Of a stretch of 32,000 nucleotides of DNA, positions 9,842 to 14,620 are shown piece by piece (position 1 is the stretch's first letter; each line of letters starts with the position of its first letter). The position numbers and the translations under genes are program-made. Origin of the DNA: Promethearchaeia archaeon (GTDB lineage Archaea > Asgardarchaeota > Lokiarchaeia > Sigyniarchaeales > SOKP01); NCBI GenBank assembly GCA_046497275.1, contig JAWOFX010000054.1, forward strand, positions 60,001 through 92,000, read 5' to 3'. Under the pieces are notes generated by a model. The model did no database searches. It had not been told where the DNA came from and saw only the letters and a list, made by a program, of their open reading frames with translations.

Positions 9842-9862
9842 AAAATAAAAAAAATAAAAAAA
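9842..9862 (-). terminator. Candidate archaeal U-tract terminator of the vhu/hdr operon
   Basis: Minus-strand T-rich run (forward aaaataaaaaaaataaaaaaa) about 20 nt after the hdrB stop. Confidence 0.4.
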
Positions 9863-9882
9863 TATTTAGAAATATATTCTGA

Positions 9883-10761
9883 CTACAAACCTAAAGGTGC
9901 TATATCTCTCAATCTGGTTCTATGGTATTTTAATCCGATATCATCTGGATTAGCTCCCATAGCCAAAGCATATAATTCCGTTAAATATATCACTGGAATG
10001 TTATAGTCTTGCTCAAATTCTTTTGAAAGATTTCTTTGGTTTGTATCAAACTGTTGAAAACAAGCTGGACAGTTAACCACGATTACATCGGCACCGGCTT
10101 TGATAATACTGTCTAATTTACGTTTAAGATTATGCATCCCAACTTCTTCGTATGCATTAGAAACAGCAGAACCACAGCATAATACTTCTTCTTCATAATC
10201 AATCACAGTAGCGCCTGTTGCAGCACTTAATTCTTTGAGAGTTTTTGGTCTCATAGGATCATCATTAGTTTCCATCCATTCATGTGGTCTCATATAATGA
10301 CACCCGGGATGACACGCAACTTTAAGTCCTTCGAGAGGTTTAGTTATTGCTGATTTAATTTTATCAATACCAATATCTTTCTTTAATACATCGACAAAAT
10401 GCCTCACATCAATAGATCCTTTGTATTCCTTCCCTATCTTCGCGAGTTCTCCATTAATATGTTCTTTTTTGATACTATCGTGTTCTAACTGATGTTGAAC
10501 TCCCCTAAGAGTATTAGTACATCCATTACATAAGGAAATTATGTCCTTATTCTCTTCTTCAGCTAAGCAGATATTTCTTGCTCCTATAGCAAGCCACCCT
10601 TCATCATCAAAACTCTTGAATCCTGTTGGGTCTGGGCAACAAGTAAAGGGAGCTTCTGAAGTTTCGATTCCTAATTTATCAAAAACATATCGAGTAGAAG
10701 CTTCGATGAATGGAATTCTATTACCAATTGTGCATCCTTCAAACATTTTATATTCTGTCAT
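9883..10761 (-). CDS. hdrB: Heterodisulfide reductase subunit B (two CCG domains)
   Basis: EGC...TCCP...CNGC and PGCH...LCCGS...CPAC motifs. ATG at 10761 is preferred over the track's GTG at 10773 because GGTGA just upstream looks like an RBS. Confidence 0.9.
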   Translation of the reverse strand: MTEYKMFEGCTIGNRIPFIEASTRYVFDKLGIETSEAPFTCCPDPTGFKSFDDEGWLAIGARNICLAEEENKDIISLCNGCTNTLRGVQHQLEHDSIKKEHINGELAKIGKEYKGSIDVRHFVDVLKKDIGIDKIKSAITKPLEGLKVACHPGCHYMRPHEWMETNDDPMRPKTLKELSAATGATVIDYEEEVLCCGSAVSNAYEEVGMHNLKRKLDSIIKAGADVIVVNCPACFQQFDTNQRNLSKEFEQDYNIPVIYLTELYALAMGANPDDIGLKYHRTRLRDIAPLGL

Positions 10762-10765
10762 TTGG

Positions 10766-11278
10766 TTATTCACCTTCCTTTAATTTTTGATTCACATTCA
10801 TATTATTCAGAAGTGTTTTCAATTCTTCCGTATCTGGAGCGATAATATCTGGTAAGCCCATTCCTTCTCTTCTTCTTTCAATAGCGGATTGTGAGGGAAT
10901 TGCCTTACCGTAATCATACACCGCTTTCGCTTGTTGATATATAAATTCGGGTCCGTTTCCTTTAGCGATACTTCTATTTTTTAGAAATGTGAAAATCTCT
11001 GTAAGTTCAATATTTTGTGGGCATACTTCATCACATGTATCGCATACAGTGCAACCCCAAATAGCGATTTCATCAGCATTAAAAATACTATCCTCATAAC
11101 CCAATAAAGCATTTAGAATATTACTTCTAGGATTATATCTGTATTGATAGAATTCATCAGTCACATATGATACAGGACAATTATCTGTACATCTATTGCA
11201 TTGATAACAGTATTTTATTACATCAGATCCTTGATGATAATCCATAACTTGTTTCCTAAATTCAAAATCTATAACCAT
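10766..11278 (-). CDS. hdrC: Heterodisulfide reductase subunit C (2x[4Fe-4S])
   Basis: CYQCNRCTDNCP and CTVCDTCDEVCP ferredoxin motifs; immediately upstream of hdrB. Confidence 0.9.
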   Translation of the reverse strand: MVIDFEFRKQVMDYHQGSDVIKYCYQCNRCTDNCPVSYVTDEFYQYRYNPRSNILNALLGYEDSIFNADEIAIWGCTVCDTCDEVCPQNIELTEIFTFLKNRSIAKGNGPEFIYQQAKAVYDYGKAIPSQSAIERRREGMGLPDIIAPDTEELKTLLNNMNVNQKLKEGE

Positions 11279-11282
11279 ATTT

Positions 11283-11290
11283 GATCACTC
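11283..11290 (-). promoter_or_regulatory. Shine-Dalgarno-like site for hdrC (GAGTGATC)
   Basis: GTGATC is complementary to the usual archaeal 16S 3' tail (GAUCACC). The same hexamer precedes ATGs at 23348-23353 and 27747-27752. Confidence 0.5.
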
Positions 11291-11331
11291 ATTTTTGTTT
11301 TTTTCTTGTTTTAATTTCTATGTAAATTTTA

Positions 11332-11404
11332 GTTGGTTATAACCCTTGCATGGGCAGTCATATCCAATCTATTATTTGTATTGGATATTTCATCCTAAAC
11401 CAAC
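11332..11404 (-). promoter_or_regulatory. SECIS-like RNA hairpin (eukaryote/Loki type) for vhuU
   Basis: Minus strand: AUGA(11393-11390), A, AUAUCCAAU(11388-11380), loop ACAAAUAAUAG, AUUGGAUAU(11368-11360), GA(11359-11358). Perfect 9-bp upper stem, AAA 12 nt after AUGA, and a possible 7-bp lower stem GUUGGUU(11404-11398)/AACCAAC(11338-11332). Confidence 0.8.
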
Positions 11405-11542
11405 GTTTAATTTACGCGAGTAAACCTCTTTGCCCTCCTCATCAACAACAGTGATGTGGGCGGCACATGATAGTCAGCAATCATAACAACGCACTATCAT
11501 TTCTAAAAGATTTACTACTCCTTCGTCTATATCCTCACTCAT
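11390..11542 (-). CDS. vhuU: Selenocysteine-containing small hydrogenase subunit VhuU (C-terminal Ni-binding peptide of a split large subunit)
   Basis: Manual translation: MSEDIDEGVVNLLEMIVRCYDC(U)LSCAAHITVVDEEGKEVYSRKLNVGLG*. The in-frame TGA at 11476-11474 occupies the first Cys position of the DPCxxCxxH motif that VhuA lacks. GTGAT RBS upstream and SECIS-like hairpin downstream. Confidence 0.92.
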
Positions 11543-11591
11543 TTTTGTTTATCACTTTATAATTTTTCTATTTTTTAACCTCTAAGCAAGT

Positions 11592-12896
11592 TTAATCTAT
11601 CCATGGATCTGGTAAATTCAGACCTTCTAAGGCTTTATCTTCAAAAACTTGTTTTGCTGTATGCATCAATGATTTTTCGATTCCTGCGATATTGTGATTC
11701 GTGGCAACTAACAGATTTAATTTCTTACAAATACCTTCTGCATCAGACCAAATATGATACAAGAGTAAGCCTCGTGGAGCTTCTGTGACACCTACCCCAT
11801 TTCCTTCTCTTGGTTCCACATCTAAGGTTTTGCAATCAGGATTCACAATATCAGGATCCTCTAACAAGGTTTTTATTTGTTCGATTGCTTCTACAGTTTC
11901 TATTAATCGCGCCCAATGATATGCGAATGTGTGATGAGAAACTTCTCCGACTTTGTCTCTAAATTGTTGCAAAGCATCTTGAGCTAAGGGAGTTGCCATT
12001 CTATCCGCAGCGTTGATCATTGCCAGACAATTTGCGCGGTATATTCCCTCTGGGTACCCAGCTGGTTTATAATACATGTGGGTTGCATATGAATGTTCGG
12101 GAATATGCTCACCTAAGGCATCAAGATAATTCTGTACCTTATAGTCAGTTTTCTCTCCTTCAGGTGAAACTATACGGATATCACCTTCATAGATATCATG
12201 AACGCCATTTTTAGCCATTCCCAAATAATATGTAGGAACGACTCCTACATTAGCCACAACATCCCAATAGTCTTCGACAACCTTTAAGCCTATATCGACT
12301 GTTTTCTTGGTAAATTCAATTTGTTCATCGACTTGTTTTAAAAATTTGTCCCGTGCATCTTCATCCATTGGTTTCTTCATCCCACCAACGATTGCAGAAA
12401 TCGGATGCACAGACTTTCCACCAATTTCTTGACAAAGTTTTTGTCCGAAATCCATCATCTTTAACGCCATTTTGCCAACATCGGGCATCTTGTTTATAAC
12501 ATGAACAACGTTGCGTTTTGCAGGATCAGCAAACGGTCCTAACAAGAAATCTGGTGCTGCCAATGCATAGAAATGTAATATATGAGAAGCATACTGCTTT
12601 GCGTTCATTATTAATTGTCGCAATTTATAGGCTGGTTCCGGAATCTCCACACCCCACGCATCTTCTACTGCTTTTGTTGGAGTAATGTGATGGGGAATAG
12701 GACAAATCCCACAAATTCTTGGCGTGATTCGGGGTACATGTTCACAATACCGTCCCTCTACAAATTTTTCAAAAAATCGAGTAGATGTGATATTGAATTG
12801 AACATCCTTAACCTTTCCATCATCGTCAATAACAACATGTAAATCCCCGTGACCCTCTAATCGGGTGACTGGTTCAACTTCTATTTCCTTAACCAT
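11592..12896 (-). CDS. vhuA: F420-non-reducing (group 3c) hydrogenase large subunit, split form lacking the C-terminal CxxC
   Basis: EPVTRLEGHG, RFFEKF, PRICGICP (N-terminal Ni motif), TEAPRG and VATNHN. Ends EGLNLPDPWID with no DPCxxCxxH. Confidence 0.92.
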   Translation of the reverse strand: MVKEIEVEPVTRLEGHGDLHVVIDDDGKVKDVQFNITSTRFFEKFVEGRYCEHVPRITPRICGICPIPHHITPTKAVEDAWGVEIPEPAYKLRQLIMNAKQYASHILHFYALAAPDFLLGPFADPAKRNVVHVINKMPDVGKMALKMMDFGQKLCQEIGGKSVHPISAIVGGMKKPMDEDARDKFLKQVDEQIEFTKKTVDIGLKVVEDYWDVVANVGVVPTYYLGMAKNGVHDIYEGDIRIVSPEGEKTDYKVQNYLDALGEHIPEHSYATHMYYKPAGYPEGIYRANCLAMINAADRMATPLAQDALQQFRDKVGEVSHHTFAYHWARLIETVEAIEQIKTLLEDPDIVNPDCKTLDVEPREGNGVGVTEAPRGLLLYHIWSDAEGICKKLNLLVATNHNIAGIEKSLMHTAKQVFEDKALEGLNLPDPWID

Positions 12897-12897
12897 T

Positions 12898-14229
12898 TTA
12901 TTTATGCACCTCTTCTGTAAATTGTTTATTCTTTGCTAAGGTGAATTTCTCAAAGGTACCAATATGATCTTTTACTTGAGCTAGCAATTCATCCTTAGAT
13001 AAAGCAACATTAAATCCTTTAATTGCTATATCGGCAAATCTTGATGCTTGATCCGCAACCCATTCTGTTTGACCATAACAGCCAGTGCAGGGAGCGTTGA
13101 CCTTAATACACATACCACCGCATCCTGCTCTTGTGACTGGTCCCATACAAATATATCCTTGTTCAATGAAGCATTCTTCTTGGTTAGGGAGTCCTTCATA
13201 ATCTCTTTTTACTTTTGTCATAGTGGATTTGCTACCAATAATTCTGGGACACGTATCGCAGACATTAGATATTTCATGGAAGTCTGGATTATTTTTTAGG
13301 TATCCCAATAGGTTCGTGGCTACTTGTTTTGCTTTATCATTTAACTGTGTTAAAGGTGTTTCTGCTTCTCCTTTATTTTTTATTTGCTTCAATATGTCCG
13401 CTGAGAGATCGAATCCTGCCATTAATGGAACATTCAAATATAAAGATAAGAATTCATACATGGCTTTCTTCTCTCCCGTAGTAATATTAGAAAGATCTCT
13501 GGTTTTCTCAATTAGTTTATCTGCTCGTACATGTGCTGTTTTTGATGGACCAAAACATCCTACACATGGACTACCATTGCCAGGACATTTTAATGAGCAT
13601 CCAACACTTGTAATCGGTCCGAAACAGAGAGTCCCCTTATCGAGAATGCATCCCTCTTCATTTAATGGACATTGAGTACAGAATGAATATTCTTCGTTTG
13701 GAAAATCCTTTTGTCCAAGTAAGAATTGGACGGCACTCACAATTTGCTCTGGTTTTGGAGGACATCCAGAAATATAGGCATCTACATCAATGATATCATC
13801 TACCACAACCACGTATTCTCTAAATCCTGGGACGTGTTCTGTTGGCTCTTTTGGATTTTCATCAGTGATGCTTTCGGCTTCATGGAATTTTCTATCAACT
13901 AATTCTTGCTTTTTCCATTCATTGGCTAAGCCATGAACATTGCCATAGCAAGCGCAACTGCCGAAATTAATTATTAATTGACATTTTTTCCTCATTAGTT
14001 CTACACTTTCGTAATCCTCATTTGTTCGAACAGAACCTTCAATGAACCCAACTAAGACTTCCCCGTCTTGACGTGCTTTTAATGAATCAAGTTTATAGTC
14101 AACAACTGCTGGCCAGTAAACAAATTCCAGTGCTGGAAGAATATCTAACAATCCTAAATGTGCATTCAATAAGGACTGATGACATCCCCAACAATCACTG
14201 AGTTGCATGAAAGCTACTTTTACTGCCAT
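12898..14229 (-). CDS. vhuG: Group 3c hydrogenase small subunit, extended by a duplicated 8-Cys Fe-S module
   Basis: Proximal ligands C13/C16 (SDCWGC), C92 (GSCA) and C156 (SGCPP); two Cys-rich C-terminal modules (aa 184-225 and 324-384); 443 aa. Confidence 0.88.
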   Translation of the reverse strand: MAVKVAFMQLSDCWGCHQSLLNAHLGLLDILPALEFVYWPAVVDYKLDSLKARQDGEVLVGFIEGSVRTNEDYESVELMRKKCQLIINFGSCACYGNVHGLANEWKKQELVDRKFHEAESITDENPKEPTEHVPGFREYVVVVDDIIDVDAYISGCPPKPEQIVSAVQFLLGQKDFPNEEYSFCTQCPLNEEGCILDKGTLCFGPITSVGCSLKCPGNGSPCVGCFGPSKTAHVRADKLIEKTRDLSNITTGEKKAMYEFLSLYLNVPLMAGFDLSADILKQIKNKGEAETPLTQLNDKAKQVATNLLGYLKNNPDFHEISNVCDTCPRIIGSKSTMTKVKRDYEGLPNQEECFIEQGYICMGPVTRAGCGGMCIKVNAPCTGCYGQTEWVADQASRFADIAIKGFNVALSKDELLAQVKDHIGTFEKFTLAKNKQFTEEVHK

Positions 14230-14620
14230 TTTTCATCATTTAAAATTTGTTTTTTTGTTTTAATTTTAATTTTTAATTTCCTAGTTAATTGCAAATAGGA
14301 TGTTTATAATGTATTAAGCAATTTATTAAAAAATTACTCCTATATTATCGAAAAATTACCCTAGCACTTAAGAAAGGAATAATTATTCATAAAAATACTA
14401 ATAAACTTTTTCAAATAGTGAATCAATATTCAAATGTTCATTAATATGCATATTTGAGTAAATAGAGAAAAGAGTTTGGTTGTAAAGCAATAATCTAATA
14501 TTTCGATCTTTAATGTCGTGAATTCAATTTCACTACTTTATAATTATAAGAAATTTTGAAAATATAAAAATGATTTGAATTTCGATGAATAATCAGAGTC
14601 TTTAAGACTTCTTGGAAATT

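Follow-up and report, generated by a model that had tools for sequence, protein, structure and literature searches.

Overlap of the vhuU stop codon with the core of a probable lokiSECIS in an Asgard archaeon is best seen as a frozen compact arrangement

Introduction

The short hydrogenase gene vhuU of an Asgard archaeon carries two in-frame UGA triplets, one at codon 23, where it is predicted to be read as selenocysteine (Sec), and one at its end, where it forms part of the core of the SECIS element that would recode the first. This arrangement raises the question of whether the overlap between stop codon and SECIS core is a device selected to control decoding, or a compact layout that has become difficult to change. 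An initial annotation of the locus favoured a self-limiting design, in which the hairpin would be intact while the first UGA is recoded and unfolded by the time the ribosome reaches the second, with the C-terminal tail of the protein doubling as the spacer between Sec codon and SECIS.

Both the stop-in-core overlap and the core of this mechanism are already published for Lokiarchaeota. Mariotti et al. (2016; Mol Biol Evol 33:2441, PMC4989117) reported that the AUGA motif of the Loki VhuU.1 element doubles as a stop codon, and that the proximity of the SECIS precludes recoding of such stops, which amounts to a minimal-distance requirement; Huang, Xiao and Zhang (2024; ISME J 18:wrae111, PMC11227280) found that UGA stops in Lokiarchaeia often overlap AUGA. 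The initial annotation had itself noted that eukaryote-like SECIS elements and Sec-containing VhuU had been reported from this group. To the published overlap we add a count of its occurrence (121 of 126 homologues), natural exceptions without it, an account of the 84-nt length as a protein constraint, and a three-helix architecture. Because the element class has been argued to link archaeal and eukaryotic selenocysteine decoding, its correct annotation matters; without a SECIS annotation, vhuU is missed and the hydrogenase looks broken. With high probability the element belongs to the published lokiSECIS class (Asgard type-I eukaryote-like SECIS) as its vhuU representative. It is built of three helices, and its overlap is best explained as one frozen by a double constraint and not as a required control device.

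Results

vhuU is the predicted nickel-binding piece of a split hydrogenase subunit

In the window (the whole 32,000-nucleotide stretch of DNA analysed here), vhuU comprises 50 codons on the minus strand (Table 1), and its translation, with the TGA of codon 23 read as U, is MSEDIDEGVVNLLEMIVRCYDC-U-LSCAAHITVVDEEGKEVYSRKLNVGLG, including the core stretch ...RCYDC-U-LSCAAH...NVGLG. The protein aligns to residues 423-449 of MvhA (..MEMVIRAYDPCLSCATH), which places U23 opposite the first Cys of the DPCLSCATH nickel site, and a solved VhuU chain of 27 amino acids (PDB) matches residues 5-30. TGA occupies the Sec position in all 121 vhuU homologues. As expected of VhuU, the small Sec subunit of the F420-non-reducing [NiFeSe] hydrogenase, the protein is encoded by a separate short open reading frame after vhuA and carries the D-x-U-x-x-C-x-x-H ligands (here DC-U-LSCAAH); vhuA itself, just upstream, matches only the N-terminal part of Pfam NiFeSe_Hases. 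On these sequence matches, vhuU is the predicted C-terminal Ni-binding piece of a split [NiFeSe] hydrogenase large subunit.

The hdrC-like gene begins 112 nt past the vhuU stop, such that the SECIS sits inside a vhuG-vhuA-vhuU-hdrC-hdrB gene row, which is in turn surrounded by hypC, hypD, hypE and hypF. The other four genes of the row end in TAA or TAG (Table 1), as the initial annotation had noted. The VhuG-like small subunit is 443 amino acids long, with only its first 167 residues matching Pfam Oxidored_q6.

Four metatranscriptome libraries, drawn from salt-lake samples in three studies, hold contigs that span vhuA, vhuU, the SECIS and hdrC; contigs of this kind show that the sequence is present in the RNA libraries, but they neither prove a single transcript nor exclude DNA carry-over. 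The whole vhuG-hdrB row (window 9842-14305) occurs at 99-100% identity in contigs of four salt-lake metatranscriptome libraries. This assigns the organism itself, or a strain very close to it, to a salt-lake habitat. Further metatranscriptome contigs match positions 11352-11404 only and correspond to the SECIS of related strains. Immediately beyond the row, contig cover vanishes in each of the four runs; no weight was given to this, as absent cover in contig data is not evidence.

Table 1. Features of the vhuU SECIS element and its gene row, in window coordinates
Feature	Position	Strand	Description
vhuG	14229-12898	minus	stop TAA
vhuA	12896-11592	minus	stop TAA; Pfam NiFeSe_Hases, N-terminal part
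vhuU	11542-11390	minus	stop TGA (11392-11390)
Sec codon UGA (codon 23)	11476-11474	minus	aligns with first Cys of DPCxxCxxH
Helix I, 5' arm	11404-11398	minus	GUUGGUU; coding, inside Val-Gly-Leu codons of vhuU
AUGA of core	11393-11390	minus	A11393 plus vhuU stop UGA
Extra A between AUGA and stem	11389	minus	one-nucleotide variant
Helix II, perfect 9-bp stem	11388-11380 with 11368-11360	minus	ATATCCAAT with ATTGGATAT; published lokiSECIS hairpin
Apical loop, 11 nt	11379-11369	minus	ACAAATAATAG (ACAAAUAAUAG); A in 4 of first 5 bases, AG at end
3' GA of core	11359-11358	minus	partner of GA in AUGA; putative tandem sheared G.A pairs
Helix III hairpin	11355-11342	minus	GCCC-AUGCAA-GGGU; on 3' (non-bulged) strand between GA and helix I
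Helix I, 3' arm	11338-11332	minus	AACCAAC; pairs with 11404-11398
hdrC-like	11278-10766	minus	stop TAA; Pfam Fer4 dicluster families; 112 nt downstream of vhuU stop
hdrB	10773-9883	minus	stop TAG; Pfam CCG

Three helices surround an AUGA...GA core

The element downstream of the Sec codon folds into three helices, and this fold is the minimum-free-energy structure given by RNAfold (-20.1 kcal/mol, z = -3.5); the helix II hairpin alone is predicted at -8.5 kcal/mol (z -3.3). The three-helix structure is beyond chance. The limits that the initial annotation had set for the element, 11332-11404, coincide with the exact outer ends of helix I, and its description of the sequence proved accurate throughout, from the AUGA, perfect 9-bp stem and GA to the lower-stem 5' arm lying in coding sequence (GTTGGTT, within the last vhuU codons); the distance from the Sec codon to the element, put at about 80 nt, measures 84 nt to the vhuU stop. 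Hairpin III, between the 3' GA and helix I, is absent from that description. Given the extra A before the stem, the tandem G.A register in this element would require either an A.A pair or a bulge. The kink-turn geometry that we assign to the core is a putative one.

By the definition of Mariotti et al. (2016; PMC4989117), a lokiSECIS opens with AUGA, continues into a stem of 9 bp whose 11-nt loop begins with an A-rich stretch and ends in AG, and closes with GA, or AA in VhuU. The element in the window has AUGA 5' of the stem (with one extra A), a 9-bp stem, an 11-nt loop that is A-rich at its start and ends in (A)G, and GA 3' of the stem. It is located at the 3' end of vhuU, whose in-frame UGA falls at a catalytic Cys position, and the genome encodes Sec machinery. 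A cmscan search of the whole window, a check that the initial annotation had proposed, returned no Rfam SECIS family at E <= 10, only weak snoRNA-like noise. SECISearch fails on these Asgard elements in both published surveys (Mariotti et al., 2016, PMC4989117; Huang et al., 2024, PMC11227280).

Inspection of the coding part of vhuU revealed no other candidate Sec signal, its RNAalifold consensus reaching -3.1 kcal/mol. A short hairpin of 5 bp, 8-22 nt past the Sec codon, could form in 78-100% of homologues; it lies within the invariant LSCAAH codons and shows no two-sided change. In the minimum-free-energy fold, codons 8-13 (GAGUAGUAAAUCUUUU) can also pair with codons 37-43 (AAAGAGGUUUACUC) in a long-range helix (window 11405-11521, minus strand) that contributes to the -58 kcal/mol of the whole mRNA. 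As a functional element this helix was rejected, for it is absent from the RNAalifold consensus of 121 relatives and is probably incidental.

The helices covary and constrain the last codons of vhuU

Of 135 genomes of the same family, 113 contain the region according to a DNA search, and conservation was assessed on 126 homologous vhuU 3' regions from this family, 123 of them distinct sequences in a MAFFT alignment. Pairing is retained in 98.5% of cells in helix I, 95.8% in helix II and 91.4% in helix III (95.8% overall), and 12 of the 20 pairs have changed on both sides, including three of seven in helix I and eight of nine in helix II; helix III shows almost no two-sided covariation within vhuU. 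The compensatory changes in helix I (UA to CG in 58 sequences, UA to AU in 19) are each matched on the coding arm. None of 500 shuffles paired as well as the observed alignment, and sliding the 3' partners left 20-50% paired.

The imprint of helix I is visible in codon choice. Among the 121 homologues the Val codon is GTT or GTA, the Gly codon GGT or GGC only, and the Leu codon TTA in 111; the last Gly codon of vhuU is GGA, which yields AUGA, or GGT, which yields UUGA, while Gly elsewhere in the gene uses all four synonyms. The synonymous sites of the last four codons are therefore restricted in the way that pairing requires, which counts in favour of a SECIS.

The dinucleotide after the stem is GA in 71 and AA in 52 of the 123 sequences, and the core takes four forms: AUGA-stem-AA (52), AUGA plus one nucleotide-stem-GA (38, the type in the window), AUGA-stem-GA (26) and UUGA-stem-GA (7). 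The one-nucleotide core insertion co-occurs with a 3' GA only, never with AA, a pattern that may be phylogenetic. In 36 of the 123 sequences the helix II pair next to the core is U.U or otherwise non-standard, which would fit the 3b.3n position of a kink-turn, and this too may reflect phylogeny.

The stop codon overlaps the core in most homologues, with natural exceptions

The core UGA is the stop codon in 121 of the 126 family homologues, always at a distance of exactly 84 nt from the Sec codon. In four of the remainder (L081, L129, L131 and L132) a duplicated TA (..UUA UAG G-AUGA) introduces a UAG one codon before this position and leaves the AUGA in place, and one has a premature TAA. Outside the family the overlap is kept, again at exactly +84, in 21 of 25 homologues, 19 of them from a GC-rich family and one from another family, both outside the class of the window. 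In a sister family, three genomes, each a single contig, end vhuU with TAA at +84 and apparently have the SECIS further downstream; a geometry scan placed the AUGA core 27 nt further on in one of these (L190) and scored no such core in the other two. A fourth genome (L192) has TAA at +90 and an AUGA core 18 nt downstream. These results, together with the covariation of the helices, bear out the conservation that the initial annotation had proposed to look for, and they show at the same time that lineages with UAG stops or apparently displaced cores keep a Sec-containing vhuU without the overlap, which indicates that the overlap is dispensable.

Two further elements of the proposed design fared less well. 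The in-frame TAA at 11374-11372, five codons past the vhuU stop, is present as the initial annotation described, but as a backup stop it is not conserved: across the 121 homologues the distance from the core UGA to the following in-frame stop varies between 2 and 64 codons and is five codons in only six, so that the TAA in the loop appears incidental. The idea that the C-terminal tail serves as the spacer between Sec codon and SECIS did not hold, as the 28-codon length from Sec to stop is unchanged where the SECIS has moved, and Cys-type MvhA precursors extend to a comparable degree, by about 23 residues, beyond the His. The tail is thus an inherited protein feature rather than a SECIS spacer.

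The genome encodes selenocysteine machinery and further elements of the same geometry

The initial annotation had suggested looking for selenocysteine machinery in the genome, and this is present: a tRNA-Sec above the Rfam threshold, SepSecS (381 bits), a full-length PSTK-like gene, an EFsec-like gene, and a Sec-containing SelD with one in-frame TGA. The tRNA-Sec appears at the ends of two contigs (C33:11-129 and C165:63-181), beside SepSecS in one case and the EFsec-like gene in the other, and the two copies are probably one locus split by the assembly. At 119 nt the match exceeds the 91 positions of the model, as an intron or a long insert would explain.

A strict structural pattern finds five elements in the 3.85 Mb genome against 1-3 in reversed or shuffled genomes, a count that is weak alone and convincing only with gene context. 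Two of the five follow vhuU paralogues, one follows a small open reading frame with a UGA, and two lie directly after VhuD-like genes, each of which carries two in-frame UGAs; the comparison with hairpins after vhuD that the initial annotation had called for thus revealed elements of the same geometry. Across the family, a degenerate motif (ATGA-N9-AAAAA-N4-AG-N9-GAC) occurs 104 times in 46 genomes against 5 times for a reversed control; its N9 arms are complementary (<=1 mismatch) in 28 occurrences, from the fetched loci and two contigs of the window's own genome, and appear complementary in most of the matches listed.

Several of the genomic elements differ in their surroundings. The second vhuU (C100:67390, L002) has the same stop-in-core SECIS at 85% DNA identity, with a C-G to U.G change in helix II, and a T-rich tract takes the place of hdrC downstream of it. 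Another lokiSECIS lies on the same strand some 9 kb further downstream (C100:58512), after the small open reading frame, which encodes ...GEPSG-U-AY.... At C109:18331, a VhuD-like gene with two Sec codons has its stop UGA immediately before the AUGA core (..AAU UGA AUGA..), an arrangement that is a second kind of stop/SECIS near-overlap in the same genome.

Predicted folds of SECIS elements of other genes share the three-helix layout

The folds predicted for SECIS elements of other genes show the layout seen after vhuU, with helix sequences that are unrelated to it. Helix I is followed by 4-9 nt that contain the AUGA, then by helix II, by GA with another 1-5 nt, by helix III and, after 0-4 nt, by the return strand of helix I. 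Examples of helix I in these elements are CCGAAU/AUUCGG, CCUCC/GGAGG, UGUGU/ACACA and UCCAAA/UUUGGA. In an explicit helix search, helices I and III were both found in 19 of 26 distinct other-gene elements, compared with 13.5% when the flanks were shuffled and 31% when the 5' and 3' flanks were taken from different elements, many of which are homologous. This search replaced an automated parse of constrained minimum-free-energy folds, which proved too crude (16 of 26 against 26% in shuffles). The GC-rich vhuU elements from outside the class fold alike, with a helix I of 9-10 bp and a ...CGCAAG... hairpin.

Discussion

A model for decoding and termination

From the fold, its conservation and the position of the in-frame UGA, we infer that Sec is inserted at codon 23 of vhuU under the direction of this element. 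The SECIS RNA would present three helices arranged around a core of kink-turn type formed by AUGA and GA. With the Sec codon in the ribosomal A site, the element starts 72 nt downstream and would be free to fold, and the folded form would recruit the Sec-specific elongation factor through a putative adaptor. The size of the ribosome footprint is established and provides the basis for the geometry at the second UGA: once the A site holds the stop codon, the mRNA channel would contain both the coding arm of helix I (-12 to -6) and the first arm of helix II (+5 to +13, counted from the first stop base). Helices I and II would then be melted, the signal would be lost, and the UGA would be read as stop. 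That melting occurs at the stop follows from geometry, by the same argument as in the published minimal-distance model (Mariotti et al., 2016); this part of the self-limiting design is sound, whereas its interpretation as a selected device is at odds with relatives that lack the overlap.

Alternative readings of the element and its overlap

If the overlap had been selected as an adaptive device, so that only the first UGA is recoded and ribosome traffic is limited, with the loop stop as backup and a cleavable tail that evolved as a spacer, then the overlap and its exact 84-nt spacing in 121 of 126 family members and 21 of 25 more distant homologues would be readily understood, as would a geometry that forces the element to melt before termination. 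We nevertheless regard such selection as unlikely, for Sec-vhuU persists without the overlap in the UAG variants and in the displaced-core genomes, the backup stop is not conserved, and the tail has the same length where the SECIS is displaced and a similar one in Cys-type MvhA. Moreover, a change of UGA to UAA or to UAG destroys the core G; since this G serves both stop and core, single mutations are doubly penalised, and conservation of the overlap requires no special benefit. The double constraint explains the conservation just as well as a selected device would, and the overlap is best read as a compact layout of long standing that this constraint has frozen, rather than as a required means of control.

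A more radical departure would be that the structure is no SECIS at all but some other kink-turn or hairpin, such as an L7Ae-bound regulatory or stabilising site, an RNA processing site or a terminator, that accompanies selenoprotein genes without acting in recoding. The Loki vhuU.2 SECIS gave background activity only in Methanococcus maripaludis, the one experimental test of a Loki SECIS (Peiter et al., 2025), the window holds no Rfam SECIS match, and a T-rich tract follows the element in paralogues without a downstream hdrC. This reading is nonetheless very improbable, given that elements of the exact geometry are few per genome (five here), that those examined directly follow genes with in-frame UGAs at catalytic Cys positions (two vhuU and two VhuD-like genes), that the element is retained whether it lies within the operon or at an operon end, and that no other candidate Sec signal was seen in the vhuU coding sequence. 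Least probable of all is that the core UGA is itself decoded, by Sec insertion or readthrough, to extend VhuU as far as the loop TAA. The nearby TAA in the window would fit such an extension, but its length would range from 2 to 64 codons among the 121 homologues, the frame shifts with the one-nucleotide core variants, and four relatives terminate on UAG before the core; the tail is in any case presumably removed after the His, the solved VhuU chain having 27 residues. Among these readings, a lokiSECIS with a frozen overlap is the one that we retain.

A possible three-way junction

The helices beyond the published stem-loop suggest a broader, more tentative proposal. Asgard type-I SECIS elements might be k-junction-like three-way junctions, in which helix I often reaches into coding sequence, a conserved hairpin on the 3' strand often has a loop of GCAA/GCGA type, and both belong to the functional unit as a platform for a SECIS-binding factor. 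The k-junction (Wang et al., 2014, NAR, PMC4005666; 2023, RNA, PMC10573300) has a helix at the place equivalent to that of helix III in the window, after the 3' GA; the AUGA-strand loop here is of 6 nt rather than 3, and the likeness is one of secondary structure only. The tested Loki vhuU.2 element has a predicted energy of -6.9 kcal/mol, about the size of the bare hairpin here and well short of the roughly -20 of the junction. The background activity of that element may reflect either the helices that it lacked or a factor absent from the host. Should the junction be the functional unit, the hairpin tested in M. maripaludis was incomplete, and the full three-helix element may be needed in reporter constructs and in searches for binding proteins.

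Comparison with known SECIS elements

The closest known relative is the lokiSECIS of VhuU.1 (Mariotti et al., 2016), with which the window element shares the AUGA, the 9-bp stem, the 11-nt loop, the GA/AA, its place at the end of vhuU and the use of AUGA as stop; it differs in the extra A before the stem and in a 3' GA where the paper gives AA for VhuU. Huang et al. (2024; PMC11227280) describe [U/C]GG_C[C/U][A/G] pairs in the lower stem of frhA and vhuU elements, and GUUGGUU/AACCAAC of the window matches the frhA lower-stem pairs of this Asgard type-I eSECIS-like group. We did not find the three-helix architecture described in the text of either paper: that of Mariotti et al. presents a single stem-loop, without a helix I in coding sequence or a third hairpin, and that of Huang et al. 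has no helix within the 3' strand of the 'internal loop', nor a per-family count of the overlap or its exceptions. The architecture may thus be an addition to the published stem-loop picture.

Eukaryotic SECIS elements (Rfam SECIS_1 and related; the SBP2-bound kink-turn) share with the window element the AUGA...GA core, unpaired loop adenines, the succession of helix I, internal loop and helix II, and a distant upstream UGA. The window element is set apart by its 9-bp helix II, a third helix on the 3' strand, its overlap with coding sequence, its location within a gene row and the lack of an Rfam match. To our knowledge, no SBP2 is known in Asgard archaea. The SECIS of methanogens (Peiter and Rother, 2022; Peiter et al., 2025) is likewise a 3'-UTR element near the stop codon in the same gene family, and the distance from UGA to SECIS is 88 nt in M. 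maripaludis fruA as against 84 nt in vhuU of the window; its core, with a GAA/A bulge and GC-rich stems, differs from the one described here.
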